The notes under the pieces were generated by a model. It worked only from the letters and a program-made list of their open reading frames with translations. It was not told the DNA's origin and did no database searches. A DNA stretch of 64,000 nucleotides from the NCBI GenBank assembly GCA_030390025.1, contig JASTWF010000695.1, positions 1 through 64,000 on the forward strand, given 5' to 3'. Positions 13,301-58,644 of the stretch are shown piece by piece. The DNA comes from Squalus acanthias. Its lineage: Eukaryota. A program made the position numbers and the translations under genes. Within the stretch, counting starts at the first letter, position 1. Each line of letters starts with the position of its first letter.

Positions 13301-13580
13301 AGACCCAACTTTTGTTTCTTTATTTGTCCCATTACCATCTCCTTTTGCTTGGCACCATCACCCCTTTTGTCATTTATTCTCTCCTGACTTTGCATTTGTT
13401 CTTTGCTCCACTCCCAGCTTTCCCGCCTCTGTACTTGCTTAAAAACCTGTTACATATTTTTCCAGCTCTGCCAAAAGCTCTGTCTGTGTCTCCAAAGATG
13501 CTGCCTGACCTGCATAATATTTCCAGCATTTTCTAGTTTTATCTCAGATTTCCAGCATCAAAAGTGATTTGCTTTTGATG
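10395..13580 (-). mobile_element. Degenerate Penelope-like element (family A) with tandem pLTRs and inverted 5' copy
   Basis: RT motifs FTMDVQSLYTSIPHQDGL and QINGVAMGSRM, plus GIY-YIG remnants. Tandem pLTRs at about 10400-10680 and 10683-11000; inverted copy at about 13135-13580. Confidence 0.85.
10772..10808 (-). ncRNA. Minimal hammerhead ribozyme motif (second, degenerate copy at 10459-10495)
   Basis: Minus strand AGTT-CTGACGA-agggtcatcatcct-GAAAC-GTT-AACT. Confidence 0.65.
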
Positions 13581-20690: not shown

Positions 20691-21417
20691 TTCCCATCAT
20701 ATCAGCTGTGGGGAGTAAAGTGCATAGATTCTATAATATAACTGCCCAATCTTCTCCCTCTGGCCTGATTGTACTGACCAGTGCGGGAGTACAGCCGCCC
20801 TCTGATACCCTGCTGTTCAGTAAGTGTGACTCTGGACAGGGTGGGTCGAAAGGCTATTGCCGTGTGGACAATTAATGGGGCCTGGTGTTCACATCAAAGT
20901 ATCTAAACAGTTCAATGCATGTTTATGAAGTCAATGTCCGAATTTTGGGGACAATGGTCAATTATCTTGGTCAGTGAACAGTTAATGAGATAAGTGATCA
21001 GTGTCGTGTTAATATGATTGATGCTAATTAAAGTGACTGTACTACTGAGAAGTTCAGTGCGGGTCTCCTAAGTCAGTGTACCGGCAAAGGTGACAGTGCA
21101 CGGCTGGTGACATCATTGCGCCGTTAATCAAGTGAATGTCGGGCTAATGACCGCAGTGCAGGCGCCATCACACAGGAGCATCAGCAATGGAAATGGTGCC
21201 CGGGGTGGAGGTCAGTGCCGGTTTAATGACGTCAGCGGGTGGGTAAGGAGCGCAGTGCAGGGATCAGAAAGTCCGCGTTCGGGCAACGAAGACAATCGAC
21301 CGCCCGTAACATCAGTGCACGAGAAATCAAGTCAGAACTCAAGGGATGGTTAACGAAAAAGGGCACAAACTGATGACGTCAATGCACGGTTCATCAAGTT
21401 AGCTTATTTTTAAAAAA

Positions 21418-21956
21418 CTGAGAAGTCGCACAACACCAGGTTATAGTCCAATAGATTTATTTAATTTTACAAGCTTTCGGAGCGGTGATACACGACAGCG
21501 CAAAATCATAGAGCACAAACTGATAGCCAAGTTCCGCACTCATGAGGATGGCCTCAATCGCGATATCGGGATCGTGTCACGATACAGAACGTGACTTGAC
21601 ATCATGGCCGGTCTTCCCAGGTGTTTTTTTTTTTTAAAAGACGAACACAAGAACCAACACAAATTGACAGGATATGCAGCCAGCAGGTGGTTTGACACAT
21701 TGGACCCCCTGGGACACATCTCATTGTCTTGGCTGTGCTCGTAGTGTGTCTTTGATGTAGGGAAAGATTTGAATAGATTTTGTCTGTGTTTAAATTGTGA
21801 ATTCTTGGAGATTCTCTCACTGCTAACTTACCTGAGGAAGGAGCGAACCGCTCCGAAAGCTTGTAAAATTAAATAAATCTGTTGGACTATAACCTGGTGT
21901 TGTGCGACTTCTCATTTTTGTCCACCCCAGTCCAACGCCGGCATCTCCACATCATG
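21418..21956 (+). mobile_element. Short PLE (family B) 3' fragment with inverted pLTR and hammerhead motif
   Basis: C-terminal remnant DTRQRKIIEHKLIAKFRTHEDGLNRDIG; 21418-21486 is inverted at 21848-21915; HHR TTAC-CTGAGGA-aggagcgaaccgctcc-GAAAG-CTT-GTAA at 21828-21866. Confidence 0.75.
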
Positions 21957-22841: not shown

Positions 22842-23904
22842 CTGAATAATCATAATAATCACAATAATCACAACAGTTACAAAAAGAATTACATATGAAT
22901 ACACATCTGATTAATCACAGATCTGACACTATTGGTTCTCAGATTGGTTCCATTCTGGTCCAATACCGCTGATGTTGTTTTTCCACTAACGCTATTGGTT
23001 ATAATGTGAGGACTGGCTTTTGATAATATTGCTTTATTTGTTGGTACCTTACCCAGTGGTCGTCACTGTGATGTTACAAACACGCACTGTATCAGATGAG
23101 AGAACGCGGCCAAGTATCGATGGAGAGAGATGAGTAAATCGAAGTCAAGCAATCTCTGTCCTCCCTGCACCCACTTTGGGTCCGCTCCGCTGCCGGCCGC
23201 ATCCGTGTTCTCCTCCAGAAAGCAGAGGCCGAGATGGGCCGGCAGAGGGCGCTCTCGCTTTCACCCTGTAACTGAAGGACACCGAGGGGAGAATTTCCCG
23301 ACCACCCCGTCTCCCTCCAGGCACACTCTGCTTTTACACAACACACGATGCATCCGTCTGATGATGACGGTTGGAGCCGGTACAGCTCATTAACACAGAC
23401 TGACCCTGAAGACGGCTTGTCGCATCTGTCTTTTCAATGATTCTATTTTCCTCAACCAATCTACACCGGAGTCCAGACCAATCCTCCATCGCTCTCTGTG
23501 AGAAGAATATCCGAACACCTGTCCTAAGTCTGTCTTTCTCTCCCTTCAGTATTTCCCACCTTGTTCTGCTGACACGTTTAAATTAAAGGTTTTTTCTCAG
23601 ATTCACCATTTCGGTCCATCCACTGCCTCCAGCAGCTCACTTCCCGCTACAAGGCCCATTATTCAGCACATCAGCTTGTAGAGTTCCGACTCCAGTTTTG
23701 GGTCCACACCACTTCCAGGGTTTAATTACCCGCCTGTACCTGGTTACCGGAACTATACACGGTGCACAAGGTGGGGCCTGGACAGAGCTCTGTTTAGTTT
23801 AACTCTGACCTCTTGTGCATCGTGACCGGAACTATACACAGAGCACAAGGCGTGATTGGATGGACCTCTGGTCCGTGAAATCCCGACACCCTGATTTCTC
23901 ACTC

Positions 23905-26173
23905 GAAATGGAGAGCGAAGAAATTGACTCAGATACTAAGGTCCTGAATTTAAACAAGGGGAATTATGATGCCATTAGACGGGAACTGAGTAGGTCTGAT
24001 TGGACAACGTTCCTGGGAGGACTGGAGGTAGATAAACAATGGCAAGCATTTAAAGATAGAATGACAAAATTGCAAAAATTGTTTATACCAATCTGGCATA
24101 AAAGGAAATCTAAAAAGGTGACTCAACCGTGGATAACAGGGGAAATTAGAGACAGCATAAAATCCAAAGATAGGGCGTATAAAATAGCCAAAAAAAGCGC
24201 CAGAGCGGAAGATTGGGAACAGTTTAAGATAGAGCAAAGGAGGACAAAGGGCTTAATCAAGAGGGGCAAAATAGCTTACGAAAGCAAGCTGGCGGAAAAT
24301 ATAAAAACTAACTCCAAAAGCTTTTATAAGTATATCAAGAGGAAAAGACTGGTGAAAACCAAAGTTGGCCCATTGCAGTCAGATACGGGGGAATATATAA
24401 CGGGAAATAAAGAAATGGCAGACCAACTAAATGCATACTTTGGGTCAGTCTTTACGAAGGAAGACACAAAAAACCTCCCTGGGATATCGGGAAAAATAGG
24501 GACATTTGCAAAGGAGGAACTGACGCAAGTCAATATCTCTAAGGATATGGTGTTAAGGAAGCTAAAGGGATTGAAGGCGGACAAATCCCCAGGGCCTGAT
24601 AACATGCATCCTAGGGTGCTGAAGGAGGTGGCCCTAGAGATAGCGGATGCACTAAGTATGATTTTTCAGAATTCATTAGACTCGGGAACAGTGCCCATGG
24701 ATTGGAGGGTAGCTAACGTTACCCCACTATTCAAAAAGGGGGGTAGGGAAAAAGCAGGTAATTACAGACCTGTAAGCCTTACATCAGTTGTGGGCAAAAT
24801 GCTGGAGTCCATCATTAAGGATGAAATAGCGGAGCACTTAGCAAATGGGGACAGGATAGGACAGAGTCAACATGGATTTACAAAGGGTAAATCGTGCTTG
24901 ACTAATCTATTGGAATTTTTTGAGGGAGTAACTGGTAAAATAGATGGGGGAGAGCCAGTAGATGTGGTGTACCTGGACTTCCAAAAGGCCTTCGATAAGG
25001 TCCCACATAAAAGATTAGCAGGGAAAATTGAAGCTCATGGGATAAAGGGGAAAGTATTGACGTGGATAGAGAACTGGCTGTCAGATAGAAAACAGAGAGT
25101 TGGAATAAACGGCTCATTTTCTGAATGGCAGGCAGTAACAAGTGGGGTACCACAGGGATCTGTCCTGGGTCCCCAGCTGTTCACAATTTACATTAATGAC
25201 CTGGATCAGGGAGTCGGATGCAGCATTTCCAAATTTGCAGACGACACTAAACTAGGAGGGGGGGTGGGCTCAGAGGAGGAGACCAGGAAGCTCCAGAGCG
25301 ATTTGGACAGACTGGGTGATTGGGCGGATAAATGGCAGATGCACTATAATGTGGACAAGTGCGAAGTTATCCACCTTGGGTGCAGGAACGGGAGGGCAAA
25401 TTATTATTTAAATGGCAATAAATTGGGAGAGGGGGAAGTACAGAGAGACCTGGGTGTTCTTGTACACCAGTCACTGAAGGCAAGCATGCAGGTGCAACAG
25501 GCGATCAAGAAGGCAAACGGTATGCTGGCCTTCATAGCAAAAGGGTTGGAATACAGGAACAGGGATACCTTGCTGCAGCTGTACAGGGCACTGGTGAGAC
25601 CACACCTCGAGTACTGTGTACAGTTTTGGTCGCCTCATCTGAGGAAAGATGTTCTTGCCATGGAGGGGGTGCAGCGGCGATTCACCAGTCTGATACCAGG
25701 AATGGCGGGATTGACCTATGAGGAGAGACTATGTAGTTTAGGGATGTACACACTGGAGTTTAGAAGATTGAGAGGGGACCTCATAGAAGTGTATAAAATT
25801 CTGACAGGTCTAGACAGACTAGATGCAGAAGGAATGTTTCCCTTGGCGGGTGAGAACAGAACTAGAGGACATAATTTAAGGATAAGGGCTAAACCATTTA
25901 GGACAGAAATGAGGGGGAATTTCTTCACTCAGAGGGTGGTGAACCTGTGGAACTCATTGCCACAGAGGGCAGTGTACGCCAGCTCATTAAATATATTTAA
26001 GAGGGAATTAGATATATTTCTACAGGCAAAAGGGGTTAAGGGTTACGGAGAGAAGGCGGGGACGGGATACTGAATTGGAGGATCAGCCATGATCTCATTA
26101 AATGGCGGAGCAGGCTCGAAGGGCCGGATGGCCTACTCCTGCTCCTATCTTCTATGTATCTATGTATCTATGT
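23905..26173 (+). mobile_element. Young 5'-truncated CR1 LINE with uninterrupted ORF2 fragment
   Basis: ORF 23815..26073 has RT motifs YLDFQKAFDKV, GVPQGSVLGP, KFADD; tail (tctatgta)n. Confidence 0.95.
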
Positions 26174-31253: not shown

Positions 31254-31569
31254 CTGAGCAGATGACGCCGGCATCCCTGGAGTGTGACAGGGAATAGTGA
31301 TCCCATTGATATGAACCACACTCCCGCAGAGCGGCCTCGGTCCCGCCGCACTCAACACCATACGTCACAATGGGTCCGGACCCTTCCCCAAAGTGAGCCC
31401 CGCGCGGTGCTGACAGCGCGGCCCCGCAGCCCAGCTCCCGGCACACAACAGCGGCGTCCGGCAGGTCCCAGAGATCATCATCACACAGTCCCCCACTGTC
31501 CCCTGTAGTGAATCTCCAGTCTCCCAGCGCACCGACTGCCCCCATTCACCAGTCTCAGCTTCACCGTCT
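31254..31569 (-). CDS. SRCR domain 1 exon, frameshifted
   Basis: Reads [29 protein letters not shown], then continues in another frame [20 protein letters not shown]...DAGVICS. Length 316 nt versus 315 for most sister exons. Confidence 0.9.
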
Positions 31570-32391: not shown

Positions 32392-32756
32392 CTGAAATGA
32401 GACATTGAGAATTAGAGTTCACTGGGGCAAGAAATCAATAAAACTGTCAGAAAGAAAAGTCACAAATACAAAGAACTGTGGGGTGAGAATTCCCGTCACT
32501 TTGCCAAAGAACTGATACCGGGGTCTGTGATTTCATCTGTCCTTCATTCCTTATAAAACCGCAAATATAATCTATGCAGCAACCTGACATTTGTAAAGTG
32601 CCTTAATTTATCGAGAATTGTTTTCACAGAAACACACACTGACACCGGGGCGCACTCTCTCCTTGTGGTGCTGGTGCTCGGGCCCCATTTATTACCAGTG
32701 TGTAGGTGCCCAGAGAAGGCGGTGGTGATGGGTCCGTTCTTTTAACAGCTGCAGTA

Positions 32757-34667: not shown

Positions 34668-36718
34668 ACGTGACACCGATTCCTGTCCTCAGCTGCGTTT
34701 GTCAAGAATTCTTGAATGAGAGCAGTTTCCAAACAGAATCTCTCTGGTCTCGTTCTGGCCCGGGTTCTGTAACTTTGACAGAGCGTTACATGCTTCCACT
34801 CCAGGAGAGCCTCAGCAGTCCTTACCAACACTCTCCTGTCCTGCAAATTCATCTTTTATTCTTATCCATTGACAGACTAGTGGGAATAATCTTTCAGTAT
34901 TTACTCAAAAACGTTAAAAACTCAACGCTTCTGTTGGAATTGGTGATTTTGAGATTACAAAATAGAGTCCATACATAGTGTTTATAAGAAAATTCTTCTG
35001 ATGTCAGATTATCAGGTGTGTCAAGAATCAAAATAATTATTTTATATTAAACTACTTCAAGTCCCACTTGAACAGTTTTCTTAATTACATGAGTTCCTGT
35101 TGGGTTTAAGAAGCAAATTAATTGAAAAACATTAATTGTAGGTTAAAACCTCCAGTAAAACACCAGAGTGAGCTCACACCAAACAATCCAGACTCTGAGC
35201 GTTAACAGCGCAAAGAGTAATTTAGAACAAAATATCTCCATAGCCCTTAACTAGTGCCTGGATAAACGTTACCATGGTTAGAAAATCAACACACAGACAT
35301 CGAATATTGACAAGAACAGGACAAAGTGCTCTGATCGCTATCTGCCGAAGTTCAATATACAAACACATTCAGGATTTGTTACACAAAGCTACCAGAGCAT
35401 GGGACATGTGGAAGGAGATTGAGAAACAAGTCCCGCTATCTCATTAAATACTACATGATTCTGTAGTAAAAGTATGGAGCATGTGGAAAGAGACTGAGAA
35501 ACATTAATTATTACATGACACTGATCATATAAATGTATGAAATAGAAAGCTTAATTTAATATAAAAAGCCCATAGTTTTGACGATCCTCACTGACTAAAC
35601 AAAAATACTCAGACAGCAAATCCCGGGGAGATTTAGGGTCTTTCAATAGCATCATTTTTGACGAGTGTACTTGATAAGAACGCCATAAATATTGATTACT
35701 AATTGAAGCAATATTATTTCCAGCTCTGGTTAATATTTAACTTTACAATATTTACAGTCCTTCTCCAACACTCCAAAGCTGAACAAATTATTTAAAAAAA
35801 TTAGATCAATTCTCTTTATCACATGGGGTCAGACAGCACTTCACTGAGAAATATCTGGGACCGAAATCTGTGTGTGGGTTCAGTCGGCAGTAGGTGCAGC
35901 TTTGACTGGTGTTCTACACTCAGTGAGTTCACTTACACCCCAGACTCCGATACACTCTATTCTAACAGTGACCGCGCTCTGCTTCCAATAGGCTCGGTTT
36001 GAAACCCCGACTGGAATATCAACTCCAGTCTGCTCTGTCTGTACGAGAGCCGCAGGGAACAAAATAATACAAACTGGCGCGGAATTTGTGTTCGATTTCG
36101 GTTTTAAATCTAAATTTGACACAAAGGTCCTCTGAAAATTAAAGTAAGTGTTAATCAGATGCAATATATAATACACATGTTTACTGTCACCGACAGAATT
36201 GAACAATTGTTCCCTATTTGAACTTGATGGAACTTTAAAATCAAACAAACAACCCAAAATATGTATTAAATGAAAATTCTACAAATTAAATAAACCATTT
36301 CAATATTCACTTCATACGATCCCAATGAATGACAAATTTGAATCAAATATGCCCATTATCTGTCAATTGATTTTCATCAACACGCGATTTGTGAAAATGA
36401 TTCAGGGAGTGATGTACATTTCATGTGTTTTCTTGTTCTATGATTTGCAGAACATGTTCTTTAAATTATCGACAAAACAGGATTTTAGTTTCCAATTAGT
36501 TTTATAATATCAAATAAAGTGAATCACGGTAACATATTTCATTAAACGTACAATGTTTCTGATAACAGTGCGAGAAGGTTTCCCTGTCAGTAAACCAGAC
36601 TTTGTTAATGATCGAGATTAATAAATATAACCAAACACACACTGGAAACAGAGAGAAAATGAATGAAGTAATCAACCGACAAACTCAGCAAAAAGTATCG
36701 AACAGTTGGAAGGAGATT

Positions 36719-39680: not shown

Positions 39681-40212
39681 GAGAAACCAGTCCCGATATC
39701 TCATTAAACACTACATGATATTGTATAAAAACATGGGACATGTGGAAGGAGACTGAGAAACGTTAATTATTATGCGATACTGCTAATATAAATGTATGAA
39801 ATAGAATGATTAATTTCAGGTAAAAAGTTCATAATTTTGAAGATAATCACTGACTAAACAACAATACGCACACTGGAGTGTGTGGAAATTTCAGCAACAT
39901 TTTTTTGGAGAGTGAACTTAACAATGATTATACTGATAATTAATACAAATTGAAACAATATGTGTTCCACGTCTAGTTAGTATTTAACTTAATATTTAAA
40001 TTCATTCTCCAACGCTCTAATACTGAATAAACTATTTAAAATAGTTCAGTTCACTCTGTCACACGGGGTCAGACAGCACTTCTGCTGAGAAATATCTGTG
40101 ACAGAAATGTGTGTGTGGGTTCAGTCGGCAGTAGGTGCAGCTTTGACTGGTGTTCTACACTCAGTGAGTTCACTTCCACCCCAGACTCCGATACACTCTA
40201 TTCTAACAGTGA

Positions 40213-40526
40213 TGTGGAGATGCCGGCGTTGGACTGGGGTGGACAAAAATGAGAAGTCGCACAACACCAGGTTATAGTCCAACAGATTTATTTCAAATTA
40301 CAAGCTTTCGGAGCTATCGATCGCCCCTTCTTCAGGTAAAGTTACTATGAGTGAATCTACAAAAGTTCACAATATAAACACATTTTTTCTGTGTTTATAT
40401 TGTGAACTTTTGTAGATTCACTCATAGTAACTTTACCTGAAGAAGGGGCGATCGATAGCTCCGAAAGCTTGTAATTTGAAATAAATCTGTTGGACTCTCA
40501 CCTGGTGTTGTGCGACTTCTCATTTT
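40213..40526. mobile_element. Palindromic non-autonomous PLE (family B) insertion with two opposed hammerhead motifs
   Basis: 138-bp inverted arms 40245-40382 / 40390-40527; 14-bp flanking duplication tattctaacagtga; HHR at 40433-40474 (+) and 40298-40339 (-). Confidence 0.8.
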
Positions 40527-42681
40527 TATTCTAACAGTGACCGCGCTCTACTTCAAACAGGCTCGGTTTAAATAATCCGATTAGAATTTCAACTCAAGTC
40601 TGCTCTGTCTGTACAGGAGCCGCAGGGGACAATACAAAACAAAACTGCTGCGGTCGTGTCTCAGATTTCGGTTTTAAAACTAAGTTTCACTCAAGGCTCA
40701 CCTGGGAATTTAAAATAAGTGCTATTCAGGTGTAAAATATTCTTACATCTGAATAGAATGACATCGGCAGAAATGGGTAAAGTTTCCCTATTTTAAAATG
40801 ATGGAATTTAAAATGAAATAACCAACCCAAAATATTAATCAAAAGAGAAATTTTCAAATTGCATAAAGCATTTCAATATTCACTTCATGCGATCCCAATA
40901 AATGACAAATTTGAATAAAAAATGCCAGTTTTCTTCAAATTGAATTTGATCAGCAGGCGATTTGTGAAAATGATTCAGGGAGTGAGATACATTTCATGTT
41001 TTTTTCTCCGTTCTATGATTTGCAGAAAATGTTCTTTAAATTATCTACAAAACAGGATTTTAGTATCCAATCAGTTTTATAAATTAAAATAAATTTAACC
41101 ACATAAATATATTTCGTTAAACTCACAAAGTATCTGATAACAGTGAGATAATGTTTCCCTGTCAGTAAACCAGCATTTGTTATTGATAGAGGTTAATAAA
41201 TATTACCAAACACAAACAGGAAACAGAGAGAAATTGAATGGAGTCACCGACCAAAAACCTCAGCAAAAAATATCGATCATGTGGAAGGAGATTGAGAAAC
41301 AAATCCCGAAATCTCATTAAACTCTACATGACACTGTATAAAAAGTATGGAGCAGGTGGAGGGAGATTGAGAAACAAGTTCTAATATCTCATTAAATTCT
41401 ACATGACTCTGTATGAAAAGTCTGGGGCATGTGGACGAAGACTGAGAAAGCTTCGTTATTACATCAGTCTTTACATATAAACGTGATAAACAGAAAAAAT
41501 AGTTTAATATTAAAAGTTCATAACTTTGAAGATAATCACTAACTAAACAACAACACTCACACAGCAAATTCTACAAAGATTTAGGAAATGTTACTAACAT
41601 CAATATTTGGAGAATGTATTTAATTATAATTAGACTAATGGTTAATGCTAATTTATACACTATTGGTTCCTCCACCAGTTAATATTTTATTATACAATAT
41701 TTATAAACTTCATCCAACATTCTAATGCTGAATAAAGTTTTTAAAATAGTTCAGTTCACTCTATCACACCGGGTCAGACAGCACTTGTACTGAGAAATAT
41801 CTGTGACAGAAATGTGTGTGTGGGTTCAGTCGGCTGTAGGTGCAGCTTTGACTGGTGTTCTACACTCAGTGAGTTCACTTACACCCCAGACTCCGATACG
41901 CTCAACCTAACAGTGAATGCGCTCTGCTTCTAACAGGCTTGGTTTAAATAATCCGATTAGAATTTCAACTCCAGTCTGCTCTGTCTGTCCAAGTGCCGCA
42001 GGGGGCAAAATAAAACAAAACTGCCGCGGTATTTGTGACCGATTTCGGATTTAAATCTAAGTTTGACACAAATCTCGACTGGGAATTTAAAATAAGTGTT
42101 AATCAGATGAACAATAATCTAAACGCGCTGATTGTCACCGACAGAAATGTAGAATTTATTCCCTATTTCAAGTTGATGGAACGTAAAATCAAACAAAGGG
42201 CCCAAAATATGTATTAAATGAATATTCTACAAATTAAATAACAATTTCAATATTCACTTTATATTAGCCCAATAAATGGCAAACTTGAATAAAATATGCC
42301 CGTTTTCTTCAAATTGAATTTGATCAGCAGGCGATTTGTGAAAATGATTCAAGGAGTGATATGCATTTCATGCTTTTTTCTCCGTTCTCTGATATGCAGA
42401 AAATGTTCTTTAAATTATCTACAAAACAGGATTTTAGTATCCAATCAGTTTTATAAAATAAAATAAATTTAACCACATAAATATAATTCGTTAAACTCAC
42501 AAAGTATCTGATAACAGTGCGATAACCTTTCCCTGTCAGTAAACCAGCATTTGTTATTGATAGAGATTAATAAATATAACCAAACACACACTGGAAACAG
42601 AGAGAAACTGAACGGAGTCACCGACCAAAAACCTCAGCAAACAATATCGATCATGTGGAAGGAGATTGAGAAACAAGTATC

Positions 42682-42827
42682 CATGATGTGGAGATGCCGG
42701 TGTTGGACTGGGGTGGACAAATGTGACAAGTCGCACAACCCCTGACGAAGGAGAAGCGCTCCGAAAGCTTGTGATTTCAAATAAAGCTGTTGGACTATAA
42801 CCTGGTGTTGTGCGACTTCTCACATTT
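42682..42827. mobile_element. Minimal PLE family-B insertion with hammerhead core
   Basis: catgatgtggagatgccg tail; CTGACGA-aggag aagcg ctcc-GAAAGCTT at 42742-42770; inverted aaatgtgacaagtcgcacaac / gttgtgcgacttctcacattt. Confidence 0.75.
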
Positions 42828-44714
42828 ATAAAAAGTATGGAACAGGTGGAGGGAGATTGAGAAAACATTTCCAATATCTCATTAAATTGACTCCGTATGA
42901 AAAGTATGGGGCATGTGGACGGGGACTGAGAAAGCTTCCTTATTAAATTAGTCTGTACATACAAATGTATTAAATAGAAAAAATATTTTAATATTAAAAG
43001 TTCATAACTTTGAAGAAAATCACTAACTAAACAATAGCACTCACACAGCAAATTCTCCAAAGATTTAGGAAATGTTATTAATATCAATATTTGGAGAGTG
43101 TATTTAATTATAATTGTACTAATAGTTAATGCTAATTGTTGCAATATTGGTTCCTCCACTAGTTAATATTTTATTATACAATATTTATAAACCTCATTCA
43201 ACATTCTAATGTTGAATAAAGTTTTCAAAATTGTTCAGTTCACTCTATCACACCTTTTCAGACTAGTGAGAAATATCTGTGACAGAAATGTGTGTGTGGG
43301 TTCAGTCGGCAGTCGGAGCAGCTTTGACTGGTGTTCTACACTCCGTGAGTTCACTTACACCCCAGGCTCCGATACACTCTATTCTAACAGTTAACGCGCT
43401 CTGCTTCTAACAGACTCAGTTTAAATAATCCAATTAGACTTTCAACTCCAGTCTGCTCTGACTGTACAGGAGCCGCAGGTGGAAGGCGATTGAGAAACCA
43501 GTCCCGATATCTCATTAAACTCTACATGACACAATTAAAATTCAAGAAAACAGCATTTATTTTGCCATCACCTCAATGTGTCCAGTAGTAAAGACCAATA
43601 ATTATATTAATGAGGTACATATTATGAGAATAAAAAGCGTATCCATAGACAAACTAAACAACAACACACACACAGTAAATTCCCCAGAGATTTAGGAAGT
43701 TTCAGTGACATCTTCTTTTGAGATAGTGCACTTAAAATACTAATAATTAATGCTAATTGAAACAATACTGGTTGCACCTCTAGTTAACATTTTATAATAC
43801 AATATTATAGACCTTGTACAACACTCTAACGCTGAACAACCTAATTTCTCAATTCCAGTTTCTGCAAAACCCGGAGGTTAGACAGCACTTCTACTGAGAA
43901 ATATCTGTGACAGAAATGTGTGTGTGGGTTCAGTCGGCAGTAGGTGCAGCTTTGACTGGTGTTCTGCACTCAGTGAGATCACTTACACCCCAGACTCCGA
44001 TACACTCCATTCTAACAGTGAACGCGCTCTACTTCTAGCAGGCTCGGTTTAAGTAATCCGATTAGATTTTCAACTCCAGTCTGCTCTGTCTGTACAAGAG
44101 CCGCAGGGGACAAAATAAAACAAAACTGCCGCGGTATTTGTGACCGATTTCGGTTTGAAATCTAAGTTTGACAGAAATCTCGACTGGGAATTTAAAATAA
44201 GTGTTAATCAGATGAACAATATTCTAAACGCGCTGATTGTCACCGACAGAAATGGAGAATTGATTCCCTATTTCAAGTTGATGGAACTTAAAATCAAACA
44301 AACAGCCCAAAATATGTATTAAATGAAACTTCAACAAATTAAATAACAATTTCAATATTCACTTTATACGATTCCAATTAATGACAAACTTCAAGAAAAT
44401 ATACCAGTTTTCTGCAAATGGACCCAGGCTCCGATACACTCTATTCTATCAGTGAACGCGCTCTACTTCTAACAGGCTCAGTTTAAATAATCCGATGAGA
44501 TTTTCAACTCCAGTCTGCTCTGTCTGTACAAGAGCCGCAGGTGGAAGGCGATGGAGAAACCAGTCCCGATATCTCATTAAACTCTACCTGACACGATTAA
44601 AATTCAAGAAAACAACATTTACTTTCCACATCACCTCAAACTGTTCAGTATTAAAGACCAATAATTATATTAATGAGGCACAGATTATAATAATAATCAT
44701 CAGCGATGACTCAC

Positions 44715-48095: not shown

Positions 48096-49576
48096 AATAT
48101 GAGTCAATGAGGGAAACACGGACGTAAAACCTCATGGGAGATAATTTTGGTCTCAGACCAACTTTACTGATCATTATTAATGATATTATCATTTTATTAC
48201 ATATAAAGAAGATTGAATCCGCTCACTTTCTGATGTGCTGCAGCACTTTACCCAGCACGGAAGTATTCGGAACAGGATTGAGTGATTGAACACCGACAAT
48301 CAGATGGATTCAATCCCAGTTAATGCCTTTCCCAAGAGCGGTTCATACTGGAGCGGCGCTCACTGTTTTAAATTGACTTCACCGATATAGAGAGGAGAAT
48401 GTGAGATCCATGAACACTCCGAGCCGGGAGATTCCCGAGTCGGGCCGGTCACCATTCCCGCTGGCGGTCGGCACCAGCCGGGCTAGAGCTGGACCGATAA
48501 CCCCATTGGGACAGGCCCGGAGCAGCAACAGGTCACCTCACACATTAGAGCAGCAGTTGCTTTAAATTATAACATATTAAGGTAATTATATGTAACACGT
48601 TAAAATGAAATCATTCTCCTTTCCGGATAAATACCGTGATTGTTATTCACCCGGTAGAATTCCCTTCGTCCCTTACACGCATTAAAGCTGGAGCTTAACA
48701 TCAGTGATCGGCCCCAGAATGGTTCCAGTGGTTCCCCCGGTACTGCAGCTATAATGATCTCACTCTGAACAGAGTTTCAGTCTTTGGTTTATTCACTTTA
48801 ACAGCGTCCCCGAAACTTCCTCGCCCTGGACTATACAGGGGTAGAGAGCCGATCCACGGACAATTCCCCTTTAGTTGGCGGCCTATATGACTGGGTCTGG
48901 TGAAAAAGGAGACGCAGACAAAACTGTCGCTCAGGCCCATTTGTGTTTCCCGATATCACATCTGATACCTTCTGCCTCTAATGTAAAATATCCGCAAAAG
49001 AACAACGGGATTTACAAACAGCGTCGACAGCGGGGGAGGAGGAGCCTTTCTTTCTTTTTCTCTCCCACAGAGCGGTCGGCAGCGGGGAAGGAGGGGCGGA
49101 CCTGGTTGGAGCGGCAGAGGCCTGAGGTGAGTCATTAAAGGGAGGCCCGAGGCTCAGGTAGGCCTCAGACCAGCGTCGACAGCGGGGGAGGAGGAGCCTT
49201 TCTTTCTTTCTCTCTCCCACAGAGCGGTCGGCAGCGGGGAAGGAGGGGCGGACCTGGTTGGAGCGGCAGAGGCCTGAGGTGAGTCATTAAACTCACCTAC
49301 GTGGCCTTTTTCCCCAGCGGGGAAAGAGCTTCGCGGGCTTTTTCAAAGGCAGGGGGCGGGGCCAATTCATTGGTACCCGTATATAGGTGGAGCGGTTGCT
49401 AAACCCGAGACACTACACTAGTAGTGACTCCCACCCTCCCACCTCCTCTAACCTTTAGGGGTAGAGGGAATTTAAAAGGTAGGTTCGATTTTATATTTTG
49501 TTTTCAGGGACTTAACTCCTGGACCTAAGATAAATAAGTTTAAATTTTAGTAATAAAGTAACATAAGGGTTAAGTC

Positions 49577-50521
49577 ATGACAGGAAGTCTCGGACCCGTT
49601 TCATGCTCCTCCTGTGCCATGTGGGAAACCAGGGACACTTCCAGTGTCCCTGACAACTACGTGTGCGGGAAGTGTGTCCAGCTGCAGCTCCTGACAGCCC
49701 GCATGGCGGTGCTGGAGCTGCGGGTGGACTCACTCTGGAGCATGCACGATGCCGAGAACTCGGTGAATCGCTCATTTAGTGAGTTGTCCACACCGCAGGT
49801 AAAGGCTAGGACAGACAGTGAATGGGTGACCAAGAAGCAGGGCAATATCAGGAAGGTAGTGCAGGAGTCCCCTGTGGTCATCTCCCTCCAAAACAGGTAT
49901 GCCGCTTTGGATACTGTTGGGGGAGATGGCCTACCAGAGGAAGGCACTAGCAGCCAGGTTCATGGCACCATGGCTGGCTCTGCTGCACAGCAGGGCGGGA
50001 AAAAGAGTGGTAGGGCTATAGTGATAGGGGACTCAATTGTAAGGGGAATAGACAGGAGTTTCTGTGGCCGCAACCGAGATTCCAGGATGGTATGTTGCCT
50101 CCCTGGTGCAAGGGTCAAGGATGTCTCGGAGCGGCTGCAGAACATTCTGAAGAGGGAGGGTGAACAGCCAGCTGTCGTGGTGCATGTAGGTACCAACGAT
50201 ATAGGTAAAAAGCGGGAAGAGGTCCTACAAGCAGAATTTAGGGAGCTAGGAGCTAAATTAAAAAGTAGGACCTCTAAGATAGTAATCTCTGGATTGCTAC
50301 CAGGGCCACGTGCTAATCAGAATAGAGAGAACAGGATAGTGAGATTGAATACGTGGCTTGAGCAGTGGTGCAGGAGGGAGGGATTCAAATTCCTGAGGCA
50401 TTGGAACCAGTTCTGGGGGAAGTGGGACCTGTACAAAAGGGACGGTCTGCACTTGGGCAGGACTGGAACCGATGTCCTCGGGGTAATATTTGCTAAAGCA
50501 GTTCGGGAGGATTTAAACTAA
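49577..50521 (+). CDS. CR1 ORF1p (Zn finger/coiled coil plus SGNH esterase-like domain)
   Basis: CSSC..CGKC, VIGDSIVR, HVGTND, DGLHL. Confidence 0.92.
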   Translation: MTGSLGPVSCSSCAMWETRDTSSVPDNYVCGKCVQLQLLTARMAVLELRVDSLWSMHDAENSVNRSFSELSTPQVKARTDSEWVTKKQGNIRKVVQESPVVISLQNRYAALDTVGGDGLPEEGTSSQVHGTMAGSAAQQGGKKSGRAIVIGDSIVRGIDRSFCGRNRDSRMVCCLPGARVKDVSERLQNILKREGEQPAVVVHVGTNDIGKKREEVLQAEFRELGAKLKSRTSKIVISGLLPGPRANQNRENRIVRLNTWLEQWCRREGFKFLRHWNQFWGKWDLYKRDGLHLGRTGTDVLGVIFAKAVREDLN

Positions 50522-50568
50522 TATGGCAGGGGAATGGGAACCTATGTAGCGAAACAGGGGGAAGTAAT

Positions 50569-53505
50569 ATGCAGTCAGAAACAAATGTTAGAAGGGTGAG
50601 AAACAATAGGGGAAGGCCGAGTAAACAAAGGCAAGAAACACAAAGGGCCATACTAAATCATAAGTCTAAAAGGACAAAGGATGTTAATAAAACAAGCCTA
50701 AAGGCTCTGTGTCTTAATGCAAGGAGTATCCGTAATAAGGTGGATGAATTGACTGTGCAAATAGATGTTAACGGATACGATGTGATTGGGATTACAGAGA
50801 CGTGGCTCCAGAACAATCAAGGCTGGGAACTGAACATCCAGGGGTATTCAACATTCAGAAAGGATAGAATAAAAGGAAAAGGGGGTGGGGTAGCATTGCT
50901 GGTTAAAGAGGAGATTAATGCAATAGCTAGGAAGGACATCAGCTTGGAGGATGTGGAATCAATATGGGTTGAGCTGCAGAACACCAAAGGGCAGAAAACG
51001 TTAGTGGGAGTTGTGTACAGACCTCCAAACAGCAGTAGTGAGGTGGGGGAGGGTATGAAACAGGAAATCAGAGGTGCGTGCAAAAAAGGCACGGCAGTTA
51101 TCATGGGTGACTTTAATATGCATATAGATTGGGCTACTCAAACTGGAAGCAATACGGTGGAGGAGGATTTCCTGGAGTGTTTAAGGGATGGTTTCCTAAA
51201 CCAATATGTTGAGGAACCAACTCGAGGGGAGGCCATCCTGGACTGGGTGTTGTGTAATGAGGAGGGACTAATCAGCAATCTTGTGGTACGAGGCCCCCTG
51301 GGGAAGAGTGACCATAGTATGGTGGAGTTCTACATTAGGATGGAGAAGGAAACAGTTAAGTCAGAGACCATGGTCCAGAACTTAAATAAGGGCAACTTTG
51401 AGGGTATGAGGCGTGAATTGGCGAGGTTAAATTGGCAAGCGATATTTAAGGGGCTATCAGTGGAAGGGCAATGGCAGACATTTAGAGATCGCATGGATGA
51501 ACTACAACAATTGTACATCCCGGTCTGGCATAAAAATAAAAAAGGGAAGGTGGCTCAACCATGGCTAACAAGGGAAATCAGGGATAGTATTAAAACCAAG
51601 GAAGTTGCATACAAATTGGCCAGAAGTAGCAGCAAACCCGGGGACTGGGAGAACTTCAAAACTCAGCAGAGGAGGACAAAGGGTTTGATTAGGGCAGGGA
51701 AAATAAAATATGAAAGGAAGCTTGCAGAGAACATTAAAATGGACTGCAAAAGCTTCTATAAATATGTAAAAAGAAAGAGGTTAGTAAAAACAAATGTAGG
51801 TCCCCTGCAGTCGGAAACAGGGGAAGTCGTAATGGGGAACAAGGAAATGGCAGATCAATTGAACAAGTACTTTGGTTCGGTGTTTACTGTGGAGGACACA
51901 CACAACCTGCCGGAAATAAAAGGGGTCAGAGGATCTGGTAAGAGGGAGGAGCTAAGGGAAATCCTTATTAGTCGGGAAAAGGTATTGGGGAAATTGATGG
52001 GACTGAAGGCTGAAAAATCCCCGGGGCCTGATGGTCTGCATCCCAGAGTACTTAAGGAGGTGGCCTTGGAAATAGTGGATGCATTGACGATCATTTTCCA
52101 ACATTCCTTAGACTCTGGATCAGTTCCGATGGAGTGGAGGGTGGCCAATGTAACCCCTCTTTTTAAAAAAGGAGGGAGGGAGAAAGCAGGGAATTATAGA
52201 CCGGTCAGCCTGACATCGGTCGTGGGTAAAATGATGGAAGCAATTATTAAAGATGTCATAACAGACCATTTGGAAAGTGGCGACATGATAGGTCCAAGTC
52301 AGCATGGATTTGTGAAAGGGAAATCATGCTTGACAAATCTTCTGGAATTTTTTGAGGATGTTTCCAATAGGGTGGACAGGGGGGAACCAGTAGATGTGGT
52401 GTATTTGGACTTTCAGAAGGCCTTCGACAAGGTCCCACACAAGAGATTGGTGAGCAAAGTTAAAGCACATGGGATTGGGGGTAATGTGTTGACGTGGATT
52501 GAGAACTGGTTGGCACACAGGAAACAAAGAGTAGGAGTAAATGGGTACTTTTCAGAATGGCAGGCAGTGACCAGCGGGGTACCGCAGGGTTCGGTGCTGG
52601 GACCCCAGCTGTTTACATTATATATTAATGATTTGGACGAAGGGATTAAATGTAATATCTCCAAATTTGCGGATGACACTAAATTGGGAGGCAGTGTGAA
52701 CAATGAGGAGGATGCTAGGAGGCTACAGAGCGACTTGGACAGGTTGGGTGAATGGGCAAATGTATGGCAGATGAAGTACAATGTGGATAAATGTGAGGTT
52801 ATCCACTTTGGTGGTAAAAATAGAGAGGCGGACTATTACCTGAATGGTGGCAGATTAGGGAAAGGGGACGTGCAACGAGACCTGGGCGTCATGGTACATC
52901 AGTCACTGAAGGTGGGAATGCAAGTGCAGCAGGCAGTCAAGAAAGCAAACGGAATGATGGCCTTCATAGCAAGGGGATTTGAGTACAGGAGTAGGGAGGT
53001 GATGCTACAGTTGTACAGGGCCTTGGTGAGGCCACACCTGGAGTATTGTGCGCAGTTTTGGTCTCCTAACTTAAGGAAGGACATTCTTGCTATTGAGGGA
53101 GTGCAGCGAAGGTTCACTAGATTGATTCCTGGGATGGCCGGACTGACATATCAAGAAAGATTGGGTCAACTGAACTTGTATCCTCTGGAGTTCAGAAGAA
53201 TGAGGGGGGATCTTATAGAGACATTTAAAATCCTGACTGGTTTAGACAAATTAGATGCGGGCAGAATGTTCCCAATGGTAGGGAAAACTAGAACCAGGGG
53301 TCACAGTCTAAGGATTAAGGGGAAGCCATTTAGGACTGAGCTGAGGAGGAACTTCTTCACCCAGAGAGTGGTGAATCTATGGAATTCTCTTCCACAGAAG
53401 GTTGTTGAGGCCAGTTCGCTAAATATATTCAAAAGGGAGTTAGATGTAACACTCACAACTAAGGGGATCAAGGGGTATGGCGAGAAAGCAGGAATGGGGT
53501 ACTGA
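50569..53505 (+). CDS. CR1 ORF2p (APE endonuclease plus reverse transcriptase)
   Basis: LNARSI, ITETWL, MGDFN, SDH; YLDFQKAFDKV, PQGSVLGP, FADD; 978 aa uninterrupted. Confidence 0.95.
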   Translation: MQSETNVRRVRNNRGRPSKQRQETQRAILNHKSKRTKDVNKTSLKALCLNARSIRNKVDELTVQIDVNGYDVIGITETWLQNNQGWELNIQGYSTFRKDRIKGKGGGVALLVKEEINAIARKDISLEDVESIWVELQNTKGQKTLVGVVYRPPNSSSEVGEGMKQEIRGACKKGTAVIMGDFNMHIDWATQTGSNTVEEDFLECLRDGFLNQYVEEPTRGEAILDWVLCNEEGLISNLVVRGPLGKSDHSMVEFYIRMEKETVKSETMVQNLNKGNFEGMRRELARLNWQAIFKGLSVEGQWQTFRDRMDELQQLYIPVWHKNKKGKVAQPWLTREIRDSIKTKEVAYKLARSSSKPGDWENFKTQQRRTKGLIRAGKIKYERKLAENIKMDCKSFYKYVKRKRLVKTNVGPLQSETGEVVMGNKEMADQLNKYFGSVFTVEDTHNLPEIKGVRGSGKREELREILISREKVLGKLMGLKAEKSPGPDGLHPRVLKEVALEIVDALTIIFQHSLDSGSVPMEWRVANVTPLFKKGGREKAGNYRPVSLTSVVGKMMEAIIKDVITDHLESGDMIGPSQHGFVKGKSCLTNLLEFFEDVSNRVDRGEPVDVVYLDFQKAFDKVPHKRLVSKVKAHGIGGNVLTWIENWLAHRKQRVGVNGYFSEWQAVTSGVPQGSVLGPQLFTLYINDLDEGIKCNISKFADDTKLGGSVNNEEDARRLQSDLDRLGEWANVWQMKYNVDKCEVIHFGGKNREADYYLNGGRLGKGDVQRDLGVMVHQSLKVGMQVQQAVKKANGMMAFIARGFEYRSREVMLQLYRALVRPHLEYCAQFWSPNLRKDILAIEGVQRRFTRLIPGMAGLTYQERLGQLNLYPLEFRRMRGDLIETFKILTGLDKLDAGRMFPMVGKTRTRGHSLRIKGKPFRTELRRNFFTQRVVNLWNSLPQKVVEASSLNIFKRELDVTLTTKGIKGYGEKAGMGY

Positions 53506-53709: not shown

Positions 53710-56700
53710 TGTTGTGGCAGATCGCCACCTAAACGGGCGCAATTCACTTTTCCGTCCGTGGACAATAAATCAGGCACCTTGCCTTTCAGGCAGAAGAAAA
53801 GAAGTGGGCGGGGCCTCTGGATTTTGGAGAGAAATGTGGCTGCAGCCATTTTCACCAGAGTTGTGATTAAAAGCTATGTGTTTCACATGTTGACTCGGCC
53901 TCAATTCGTGCTCCACGGCAGCCACAACATTGGTGACCCCGACGCTCAGAACGTATTCCGAGCACTGCAATGGCGGACACAAACGCAGTTTCCGTGAAAC
54001 TGCCGGAGTTTTGGTAAAACCAGCCCGAAGCCTGGTTTCTCCAAGCCGAGTACCGATTCCGGCTGCAACAAATCACCACAGATGGGACGAAGTACGACTT
54101 CCTCGTCACATCACTCGGTAGCCCCACAGTTACAAAGGTCTGGACAGCGCTGCAGAACCCACCAGAAGGGGGCAAGTATGCACATTTTAAGGCCGTGCTC
54201 CTCAAAAAATTTACGGCCTCGACATACCAGTGCAACTGCCACCTCCTCAACCTTCCAGGCCTCGGTGATGCCTCACCGTCAGACCTCCTCTTCCACATGC
54301 TCTCCCTCACCGACGAGAGCCCACCCGGATCCCTCTTCCGCACGCTGTTCATCCGCCAGCTACCTCTCAGCATCCACCCAGCGATCGTGGCGTCCGGCCT
54401 CACGGAACTGGAAGCCCTGGCCGATGAGGCCGACAAGCTGCTGTCCGCTCACTCCAGCCGCGACGTCACTCCGGACCTGGCAGCCACTGCCTTGGGCGTG
54501 CCCCTCACCGGCCACCACGCGGCCACAAGGGCCTGCCACCGGGCTCACGGGGCCTTCGTGCCCCACTAACCCGGGCCACTGTTACTACCACGCACGGTTC
54601 GACGCCAGGGCACAACGGTGCACACCTCCCTCCTCTTTCAAGTCTGCCCCCGTACCAGCCCCCGCGATGGCCGTGGGCCACGCAGGCTCCCTGCTGTACG
54701 TCACGGATGACAAAACCGGCCGCCGGTTCCTGTGCGACACTGGAGCTCAGCACAGCATCATCCCGGCTCCTCCCTCGACATTCAAAAGGGCAAACGAGGA
54801 CCGGCGCTGGCTGCTGCTAACGGCTCGGACATCCCGACGTACGGCACCCGCATAGTCACCCTCGACCTCGCTGGTCGCCACTACCGATGGGAGTTCATCA
54901 CTGCCAAGGTGCTCTCCCCTCTCATCGGAGCAGATTTCCTGTGCACCCACGGCCTACTGGTCGACATCCCTCGTCACCGCCTCGTGGACATGAACACCAT
55001 GTCCCCCATCCTGGGCGCCATGGCCCCCCGTCAACCCGCCGACATGGCGTCACAGTGCCACGCCCGAGCCACGGATGACTACTCGGCACTCCTGGCCGAA
55101 TTCCCGGCCCTTACCAATCCGACCTTCTCCGCGGAGGCCGCCAAACACGGGGTGGAACACTTCATCCCCACCACAGGCCCCCCAGTGTACGCCCATGCCC
55201 GGAGGCTGGACCCGGCCAAACTGGACATCGCGCGGACCGAGTTTGCCACCATGGAACAGCTCGGCATCATCCGCCGCTCCAACAGTCCCTGGGCCTCCCC
55301 ACCCCACATCGCCCCCAAACCAGACGGGGGTTGGCGCCCCTGCGGGGATTACCGCCGGCTCAACCACGCCACCACCCCTGATCGGTACCCCGTGCCGCAC
55401 ATCCAGGACTTCTCGGCTAGACTGGCCGGCCTCTCAGTCTTTTCCAAGGTCGACCAGGTGCGCGGCTACCACCAAGTCCCCGTCTACCCCGCGGACGTCC
55501 CCAAGATGGCCATAATCACCCCCTTCGGCCTTTTCGAGTTCCTGCGGATGCCCTTTGGCCTCAAAAACGCAGCCCAGGCATTCCAACGGCACATGGACTC
55601 AGTCCTTCGGGACCTGAAGTTCCTGTTCGTCTACCTGGACGACATCCTGGTAGCCAGTTCCTCCAAGCAGGAACACCTCGAGCACCTTCGCATCCTGTTC
55701 GGGCGCCTCAGCGACCACGGGCTCATCCTCAGCCCAGCCAAATGCCAGTTCGGCCTGGACAAGATCGACTTCCTCGGCCACCACATCACCCATGCTGGGG
55801 CCATTCCCCTGCCCACCAAGGGGCAGGCCGTCCAACAATTTCCCCGCCCCACCACCAAAGGCCTTCAGGAGTTCCTCGGGATGGTGAATTTCTACAACCG
55901 CTTCATCCCCAAAGCGGCGTCCCTCATGAGGCCCCTGTATGAAGCCCTCCGGGGCATGAGCGGCAAGATGGCAGTCGAATGGATGGCAGACACGTCAGCC
56001 GCCTTCGACTCCACCAAGACCGCGCTCACCAACGCCACCCTGCTCGCGCACCCACGGCCCAATGCCAGGGTAGTGCTCATCACGGACGCCTCTGACCACG
56101 CGGTCGGCGCCGTGTATGAGCAGTGGGTCGATGGTGCCTGGCAACCACTTGCCTTCTTCAGCTGCCAACTACGCCCCCCGGAGGTCAAGTACAGCAGCTT
56201 CGACCGCGAGCTCTTCGTGTTGTTCCTGGCGGTCCACCATTTTCGGTTTTTGCTGGAGGGCCACCCCTTCACTGCGTTTCTCGACCACAAACCCAACATT
56301 CGCAGTGGCAAAGACAACCGACCCCTGGTCCACCAGGCAGCAGCGCCAGCTCGCGGCAGTGTCCGAGTTCACCACGGACATCCAACACGTCTCCGGCCGA
56401 GACAATGTGGTAGCCGACTGCCTCTCCCGCCCCGCCATCCATGCCGCACACCTGGCAGTCGACTACACTCAACTCGCAGCAGACCAGATCACCGACCCTG
56501 ATCTGCTCTCCGCACCTACCAACCTACCAGGGCTACGCCTGGCCGACATCGCCTGAGGCCCGACCGCAGTCACGGTCAAGTGCGACATATCCCTATGTCA
56601 ACCTCGGCCCGTCGTCCCAGCTTCCTGGCGCCACCGGGTATTCGAGATTCTTCACAACCTCTCCCACCCACACGCATCCATCAAATTGGTAGCCAACCGC

Positions 56701-57919
56701 TTTTTCTGGCGCAGCCTTCACAAGGATGTGCATACTTGGGCCAACTCCTGCCTAGCCTGCCAACGGGCCAAGGTGCAGCAACACACGAAAGCACCCCTCG
56801 AGGAGTTTACCATCCCTTCGCGTAGATTCGACCACATCCACGTGGACATCGTCGGGCCCCTGCTGCCGTCGCAAGGCCACACGCACTTGCTGACGATCGT
56901 TGACCGCACCACACGCTGGCCTGAGGCAATTCCACTGACCTCTACCACCGCCACCGACATCGCCAGAGCCTTCGTCAGCACCTGGGTCACACGGTTCGGC
57001 GTCCCCTCCGACATGACAATTTACCTCTGAACTCTGGACCAGCGTCGCACGCAATCTCGGGGTGACCATTCACCGCACCACAGCGTACCACCCCCAAGCT
57101 AACGGACTGTGTGAGCAGTTCCACAGATCCTTGAAGGCATCTCTTCGAGCCAGCCTCCAGGACGGTGCCTGGACCGACCGACTCCCATGGGTCCTCCTCG
57201 GCCTGGATACCGTGGTTAAAGAAGACCTCCATGCATCAGCAGCAGAGCTCATGTACGGCCAGCCACTGCGCGTACCCGGCGAGTTCCTGCCCACCGCCAC
57301 GGCACCCTGGTCAGCCGACCAGCAACGACACGACTTCGCCTCACCGGCGCTACAGTTTGCCCCGGTGCCCATTGCCCAACACGGCAAATCCACCTCATAC
57401 GTCCCACTAAGCCTGCACCAGGCACGGTTCGTTTTCGTCCGGCACGACGCCCACCGTGGACCCCTTCAACCCCCGTACGACGGGCCCTACAAGGTGCTAC
57501 AGGCTGGGGACAAATTTTTCACCCTGCAACTGGGCGACTGGACCGAAAAAGTGTCGGTTGATCAACTCAAACCAGTTCACCCAGCTGCTCCACGCCCGGC
57601 CGTTCCACGTTCCCCGGCGTCCTACAAGAGCCACCCCGGCCAGCCCATCAGACCACCGCACCATCTCATCCACACCTCCTAAGCGGATTCTGTGGGGAGC
57701 TGTGTGGCGGATCGCCACCTAGACAGGCGCAATCCACATTTCCGTCCTTGGACAATAAATCGGACACCTTGCCTTGAAGGCAGGAGAAAAGCAGTGGGCG
57801 GGGCCTCTGGGTTTTGGAGAGAAATGTGGCTGCAGCCATTTTGACCAGAGTTGTGATTAAAAGCTATGTGTTTCACATGTTGACTCGGCCTCAATTCGTG
57901 CTCCGCGGCAGCCACAACA
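53710..57919 (+). mobile_element. Ty3/Gypsy LTR retrotransposon, complete but frameshifted
   Basis: LTRs 53710-53929 and about 57701-57919; flanking ATGTGA duplication; PBS TGGTGACCCCGACG complementary to tRNA-Trp; gag VKLPEFW*NQPEAWF, protease FLCDTGA, RT YLDD, RNase H TDAS, integrase HVDIVGP and GPY. Confidence 0.93.
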
Positions 57920-58644
57920 ATGTGATAATTAGGACAGCTCCATACAAAGAAAGGGAACGTAGTGAGGGAGAATAAAACAAGAATTCCGGCTCCTCAGAAA
58001 TTTGGAGACACTGTGACAGGTAAGGACACCAACAGACTCATTTGGAGCCGGACACTGCAGTGCTGGAGTGTCAGAGACACAGAGCAGAATGGCGGAGGGG
58101 CAACTGAGAGACCAATGGTTCCAGTAAACCAGTGTTAAGAAGTAAACAGAGGTCGAGATAGGGATTACAAACGCTCCCCCTGACAAACAGACTCTATTGA
58201 CCTGACCACAGAGAGTGTCGATGCATTTTGACAGAACCAAGGGTTCAGGACCTCTTGTGTCCAAGTGTTCCACTGGAGTTTATCCAGCGGACCGGGGCCG
58301 TTTTCCAGTACAGAGCACTGGGAGGGCTCTTCAGGCTACAGGTAATGCCTCCAGCGCAGTCCCCAGAGTCTCAGAGTTTCCCATTTAGACATAAGATTTG
58401 CCCAAAAGCTGCATCGAAACTTGGTCGTGGATCTTGCACATGGAGCAGAGGGACTGCTTCTACTGCATGTCTCGGAGTTCAAAACAATGAAGTAGAACAT
58501 GCAGCACACCTGTATGATTCTGCCACTTTCCTGCCGCACTCTCTCATCCCATTCGATCTGCCCAGCACAGTTTATTTTTCTCATAAACACTTTAATGTCG
58601 GTGTATGTCTGCCATATGGCATTAAATGCACGTGAAGAGAAAAC

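Follow-up and report, generated by a model that had tools for sequence, protein, structure and literature searches.

Genomic context of the insertion

The window (the whole 64,000-nucleotide stretch analyzed) carries on its minus strand an SRCR (DMBT1/CD163-like) gene, which runs from 32398 down to about 4270 and whose nearest named match was 89% identical. Just upstream of this gene, between 35396 and 44700, lie five to six units of a locally duplicated ~1.7-kb sequence, and only one of these sister units holds the short palindromic insertion described here (Table 1). In every full unit, a leader-like frame of 19 codons on the plus strand precedes a donor-like site, and ~45 nt beyond that, an acceptor-like site falls at the insertion point; a coding exon further downstream was not found. 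In the SRCR/DMBT1-like region (4270-35241), the reading frame is broken near 31490 and meets a stop near 17.9 kb, defects that reflect either a pseudogene or assembly errors, and one late SRCR exon is duplicated (5015-4899 and 7272-7156). Elsewhere in the window, two long LINE-type open reading frames (49574-53505 and 23809-26073, open for 1002 and 754 amino acids, respectively) and an LTR-retrotransposon-like element (53713-57922, with 220-bp repeats at 53713-53932 and 57703-57922) were recognized by eye.

The position of the insertion relative to the SRCR transcript depends on the leader exon. A phase-1 donor must lie upstream of the exon at 32398, and a simple scan of the minus strand passed three leader-exon candidates: 35241-35178, 44760-44715, and 53523-53457. 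Of these, 35241-35178 lies nearest and is the most hydrophobic, and it would place the insertion ~5 kb upstream of the SRCR gene. It was in this regard that we considered whether the palindrome might act as double-stranded RNA (an ADAR or Dicer substrate) on a host transcript and thereby affect its neighbor. Its arms would form a near-perfect 138-bp duplex (-251 kcal/mol), and the candidate at 44760-44715 would put it in an intron; but the more hydrophobic, phase-matched leader leaves it outside the gene, the gene itself carries the frame break and in-frame stop, and the other sister units do without the insertion, all of which make such a role improbable.

Anatomy of the insertion

The structure first described at this site was recovered in full. 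A 14-bp direct repeat (14/14) flanks the insertion, 314 bp separate its two copies, and the inserted sequence consists largely of inverted arms of 138 nt each (40245-40382 and 40390-40527) on either side of a 7-nt centre, with two mismatches between the arms (40273/40499 and 40275/40497). The predicted hairpin is far more stable than that of shuffled sequence (z = -30 versus 100 shuffles), and the insertion is without any open reading frame, in line with the lack of coding capacity noted initially. The empty site is likewise visible in sister units, as an exact single copy at 35958-35971 and as 13/14 copies at 43380, 44008, and 44442; in the unit near 41906, the target site is more diverged than in the others. 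Because the last 3 nt and the first nucleotide of the duplication are also compatible with the element ends, the true target-site duplication (TSD) is 10 to 14 bp.

Table 1. Positions of the insertion, its parts, and its sister copies in the window
Feature	Position	Strand	Remarks
Left target-site duplication, 14 bp	40199-40212	none	14/14 identical to 40527-40540
PLE tail, 32-35 nt	40210-40244	-	Left end alone; closes the minus-strand copy at its 3' end; also in copies B and C
Left arm	40245-40382	-	5'-truncated pLTR copy running on into the tail
Minimal type I HHR motif	40298-40339	-	Mirrors the plus-strand motif; predicted cut between 40302 and 40301
Right copy	40383-40527	+	5'-truncated pLTR including the 7-nt centre (40383-40389); stops at the tail-less end point (U run)
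Minimal type I HHR motif	40433-40474	+	Predicted cut after 40470
AATAAA hexamer	40480-40485	+	10 nt past the predicted cut; mirror at 40287-40292; retained in copies B and C
Right target-site duplication	40527-40540	none	Direct repeat
Sister copy B	21414-21956	+	73-nt tail-less inverted arm, ORF end, 3' region, pLTR with HHR, tail; no clean TSD
Copy B, ORF end	21487-21594		Last 35 codons of a PLE ORF
Copy B, HHR	21828-21866		
Sister copy C	42682-42829		59-61-nt tail-bearing copy (-) joined to ~86-nt tail-less copy (+); no TSD

The palindrome is asymmetric. An extra 32 bp (40213-40244) is found on the left side only, and the 7-nt centre reads as plus-strand family sequence, with 6 of its 7 letters as in copy B. 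On the basis of this left-only tail and of the matching centre, the insertion is two outward-facing, 5'-truncated copies of one terminal sequence: a minus-strand copy of 170 to 173 nt that includes the tail and a 145-nt plus-strand copy that lacks it. The AATAAA hexamer past the plus-strand hammerhead is possibly a poly(A) signal, judged by its sequence. Relative to copies B and C, both arm mismatches are A-to-C changes in the right arm (40497 and 40499), 2 nt apart and possibly from one event; they carry no A-to-G editing signature.

Outside the insertion, the unit that bears it has a change of its own at 40176, by which an inverted match of the flank (40175-40184) to the tail (40233-40242) grows from 8 to 10 nt; the change may be a template-switch mutation that arose after insertion. 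RNA-guided target choice, for which this 10-nt match between flank and tail was considered, was rejected: the match is 8 nt in the sister units, and by eye none is seen beside copies B or C, leaving chance plus one private change.

Sister copies and the link to Penelope-like (PLE) proteins

Two further copies of the family lie in the window, termed B and C. All three window copies are inverted, with a tail at exactly one end, tail-less ends at the same U run, and different centres. Opposed 5'-truncated pseudo-LTR (pLTR) copies with a 30- to 40-bp tail at one end were thus found in 3/3, which bears out the earlier suggestion of an inverted, truncated PLE insertion. A TSD and an empty site are present for the insertion at 40199-40540; copies B and C are without a clean TSD, and the hammerhead ribozyme (HHR) of copy C is without the 5' strand of stem I.

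In a Pfam search, none of the window's own three PLE fragments (0/3), nor the 35-amino-acid ORF end of copy B, reached any PLE family, and the link to PLEs was therefore drawn via homologues. Copy B joins the pLTR to a PLE ORF end, which upholds the assignment of these hammerhead motifs, minimal and of the dimer type, to a PLE pLTR. Of 20 candidate proteins, 15 matched this ORF end; those with names were from sharks, which, together with the 89% identity of the nearest named SRCR match, makes a shark the likely host. The ORF end was 27/33 identical (82%) to the C terminus of P0003, a reverse transcriptase (RT) protein (RVT_1, E 5e-9). Among close relatives of P0003, P0007 has a GIY-YIG domain (endonuclease, EN) above the Pfam cut-off, and P0006 and P0001 have one below it. 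In P0003, the nearest shark protein, an additional Cys cluster lies between RT and EN, and by eye this cluster looks Neptune-like. The combination of RT and C-terminal GIY-YIG that marks an EN-bearing (EN+) PLE is reached via copy B only: the ORF link is 33 residues of that copy, which is 85 to 89% identical to the insertion at 40199-40540.

Taken together, we regard it as highly probable that the insertion derives from a high-copy, EN-bearing PLE and consists of two 5'-truncated HHR repeats placed head to head within a TSD. As part of that same well-supported reading, it was likely made in one insertion event and is likely unable to self-cleave or to be mobilized again.

A second PLE family occurs at 486-2337 and 10396-13577, with inverted ends and outward-facing hammerheads. 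On the left of the element at 10396-13577 are hammerheads and pLTRs in tandem; its right end is inverted and, by eye, is the only one with a tail (~35 nt). The element seems to share the inverted, one-tail build. In the element at 486-2337, the left inverted arm ends no more than 1 nt from where the hammerhead is predicted to cut and adjoins a 36-bp minisatellite. Seen in one copy, this arm end could reflect cleaved RNA as template or a later deletion.

Family copies in sequencing contigs

Twenty sequencing runs cover part of the region, and contigs of four were compared with it at 90% likeness (X1, X5, X6, and X10, with 11,966, 9,830, 956, and 1,571 contigs, respectively). The contig results rest on 15 of 57 joints and 24 of 388 loose ends, these being the matches listed, and a further 24,606 pieces lie outside them. 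Among the matches listed, loose ends fell at 40210 in 84, 65, 20, and 27 contigs (X1, X5, X6, and X10) and at 40240-40250 in 93 contigs of X1, 105 of X5, 6 of X10, and none of X6. Two end points are fixed in the family, separated by about the length of a tail, and the two large runs show them in similar numbers. The HHR cleavage site was not seen as a common family end among the 24 of 388 loose ends. Depth at the tail end was thousands of times that of the flank, a ratio that is not a copy number, and the family is high-copy. The exact tail pattern was found at 0 loci in metagenome contigs and at 0 in viral contigs.

The centres of the family were anything but fixed. Arm-to-arm joints, of which 12 were among the 15 of 57 and 5 were additional (at least 17 in total), lay at different places, the offset of the centre ranging between -17 and +60 nt; each has only 24 to 28 nt on its short side at 90% likeness, and we read them as coming from other family copies. 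Among the matches listed, all family centres differed, in window copies and joints alike. For the copy number and structure of the arm, both proposed at the outset as checks, the contigs of the four runs show a very abundant family and, among the matches listed, centres that vary. High copy number, two end points, and at least 17 differing joints point to a doubly 5'-truncated PLE insertion rather than a fixed mini-element or retrozyme, and this is likely an ordinary dead insertion, not a new mini-element.

Another explanation is that the palindrome is an artefact of assembly or of library fold-back. Inverted PLE structures are described as troublesome for assemblies in PMC8557442, and no contig spans the centre among the pieces listed from X1, X5, X6, and X10. 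However, an artefact would not produce the TSD, the tail on one side only, mismatches between the arms at two positions, or tail-less ends at the end point fixed for the family, and one X10 contig crosses the left junction with 27 to 30 nt on the flank, a hint only, as this is under the 31-nt bridging rule. We give this explanation almost no weight. One contig of X1 skips the insertion (40198 to 40527) and may represent a sister unit or an empty allele. In X10, guessed to be an RNA run, flank depth was about 2 to 20.

For the locus, these results matter little, as they describe one likely inert insertion among duplicated units near an SRCR gene. The family is of wider use: with two fixed ends and variable centres, it offers a clean, high-copy read-out of PLE integration. 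For annotators, such PLE stumps mimic MITEs and microRNA hairpins.

Hammerhead motifs and their predicted fate

A full HHR motif with an intact core was found on each strand, as the initial annotation had reported. Both motifs combine an intact core with a stem I of 4 bp, a stem II of 5 bp, an extra A, a palindromic 15.2/16.2, and a CUU triplet. In the plus-strand motif, these correspond to stem I at 40433-36/40471-74, the core at 40437-43, the extra A at 40444, stem II at 40445-49/40458-62, GAAA at 40463-66, and the palindromic 4-mer at 40466-69. All features of the minimal PLE hammerhead are therein: the conserved core, a short stem I, a stem II closed by G-C, the extra nucleotide 9/10.1, the palindromic 15.2/16.2, and an NUH triplet. 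Core position 7 is A, G, or C among the window copies, with the remaining core kept. The proposed hammerhead search gave a divided answer: a strict minimal-HHR descriptor found 5 sites in the window (2 in the insertion and 3 in other PLE copies) and 0 in 100/100 block shuffles, while Rfam at its gathering score gave no match in the window, the hammerhead covariance models included. At E <= 10, Rfam returned 33 sub-threshold rows on 40150-40600, for the most part models of microRNA hairpins and none of a hammerhead family. Its microRNA rows were generic hairpin matches below threshold, and a microRNA identity was rejected.

A TATA-like, AT-rich stretch, a putative promoter by its sequence, lies ~40 nt upstream of the HHR core both in the insertion (40393-40399) and in copy B (21782-21792).

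Since the two motifs are on opposite strands, no single transcript carries both HHRs, and the insertion cannot provide a same-strand HHR dimer. In equilibrium folding, stems I and II are predicted to form with probabilities of 0.7 to 0.99 when the HHR is taken by itself; the values fall to 0.0 for either strand of the entire insertion, as they do in transcripts terminated right after the HHR. The competition between the long hairpin and the ribozyme, suggested from the outset, is thus predicted to be won completely by the hairpin. In read-through RNA, from whichever side, the antisense arm would come first, and the HHR would thereby be trapped in the 138-bp duplex; the predicted block on each HHR is its own mirror copy. 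For the plus strand, a transcript start at 40330 is predicted to lose stem I and a start at 40320 to lose stem II. Both stems could form only in an RNA starting at ~40340 or later on the plus strand (or at the mirror position on the minus strand), and even there, cutting would require another HHR RNA and perhaps the PLE protein too. The stem II probability of copy B also drops to 0 in prediction once its inverted arm is included, and its stem I is predicted to be unformed even without that arm; in these folding models, the HHR motifs of the family are marginal folders in any case. When two HHR copies were cofolded, they paired via stem II and not via the helix III palindrome, a result with no bearing on catalysis.

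These observations also bear on whether the palindrome could be a fixed-length, non-autonomous mini-element, a retrozyme-like unit that is transcribed, self-cleaving, and re-inserted whole by PLE proteins. The clean TSD, the intact HHR cores, and the slight divergence of the arms (2/138) would suit such a unit, as would a subfamily contig sharing the stem II loop that is deep in X10 (record 13) and the derivation of vertebrate retrozymes from pLTRs, which is given in bioRxiv 10.64898/2026.07.22.740005. Against it stand the opposite-strand HHRs and the lack of tandem units, the different centres in 3/3 window copies and at least 17 joints, and the predicted block of the HHR in every full-length RNA. 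No tandem same-strand units, each with a type I HHR, were found at the site. We consider a mini-element very unlikely, and the retrozyme-like interpretation floated in the initial annotation found no support, given the opposed hammerheads, the lack of a tandem array, and the varying centres of the family.

How the inverted insertion may have formed

With the insertion read as a doubly truncated PLE copy, the mechanism behind the inverted junction is the remaining live question, and the family could be used to test it. The insertion junctions fit priming from both target strands. In such a scheme, the element's GIY-YIG endonuclease would nick both target strands, 10 to 14 bp apart in AT-rich DNA. 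The 3' end of the top strand would prime cDNA at the end of the RNA tail (a 3-nt match), and that of the bottom strand would prime at a second start site, 32 to 35 nt further in. Both cDNAs would terminate early, at 170 to 173 and 145 nt, and would then be joined with little or no homology (~one base) and filled in. Priming at both start sites, with the cDNAs joined mid-element, would account for the single tail per insertion and for the self-silenced hammerheads. Both-strand priming is carried over to the shark family from another PLE studied in vitro. We offer only tentatively the proposal that PLE stumps record twin priming, from both nicked strands, one per fixed RNA start site, with truncated cDNAs joined. 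No published model of both-strand, two-start-site priming for inverted PLEs was found in the literature searched, which was mostly outside subscription papers. If the proposal is true, the mechanism is testable from junctions alone, given the very many copies.

A rival mechanism leaves the identity of the element unchanged. The mirror half could have been made by self-priming, through fold-back on an antisense template, and the one-sided tail would then come from endonuclease resolution of a hairpin intermediate, as proposed in PMC3846280 and PMC8557442; this is a possibility that we hold short of probable. It is consistent with the centre, which is antisense sequence on the bottom strand, as antisense fold-back would leave. 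Several near-symmetric joints (offsets -5 to +2) cluster at 40341-40346, beside a short quasi-palindrome upstream of the HHR, and other joints fall in stem II. It fits less well with the many joints that are strongly asymmetric (+42 to +60) or have inserted letters, and the strand that would fold back is the one whose first half is without the tail. For the junction at hand, the family sequence of copy B offers about one base pair for fold-back.

Comparison with known systems

The layout of the element, an inverted pair with a one-sided tail, is already known for the PLE class. PMC3846280 and PMC8557442 describe inverted, 5'-truncated copies of EN+ PLEs with a 30- to 40-bp tail at one end, 8- to 10-bp TSDs, and head-to-head junctions, and the integration step of PLEs is listed as still undefined in PMC8557442. 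The "tail" is used here as it is defined in PMC8557442 and PMC11167929. The shark insertion shares with those elements the head-to-head truncated copy and the tail at one end, but its TSD is 10 to 14 bp, its halves are so short that almost only pLTR remains, and its arms nearly meet, with a 7-nt centre. A palindrome at the centre, which the rotifer cases have, was not seen at the 40383-40389 junction.

Dual minimal HHRs on opposite strands, ~100 to 700 bp apart, are reported in PMC4209133, where they are tied to truncated PLEs in Schistosoma and where the activity of minimal HHRs is low even as dimers. Held in common with the motifs described here are the short stem I, the extra nucleotide 9/10.1, G10.1-C11.1, the palindromic 15.2/16.2, and the lack of helix III; the present motifs differ in being of a shark-type family, with a 5-bp stem II, an 8-nt loop, and a CUU triplet.

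The lizard PLE Poseidon PAc of Anolis carolinensis (PMC11167929) resembles the shark family in its two end points one tail apart, its predicted stem-loop region, its AT-rich targets, and the HHR in its pLTR. For PAc, nicking of both strands of the target, their extension, and the dependence of the hammerhead on protein were shown in vitro, and its tail lies between two RT start sites, whereas the shark family is described here from sequence.

The metazoan non-LTR retrozymes, according to PMC7229834 and bioRxiv 10.64898/2026.07.22.740005, are likewise small, non-coding, and pLTR-related, with a type I HHR. They are built of same-strand tandem repeats, with one such HHR per unit, that give rise to unit-length circular RNAs, whereas the insertion described here is one inverted pair with a single sense HHR per strand.
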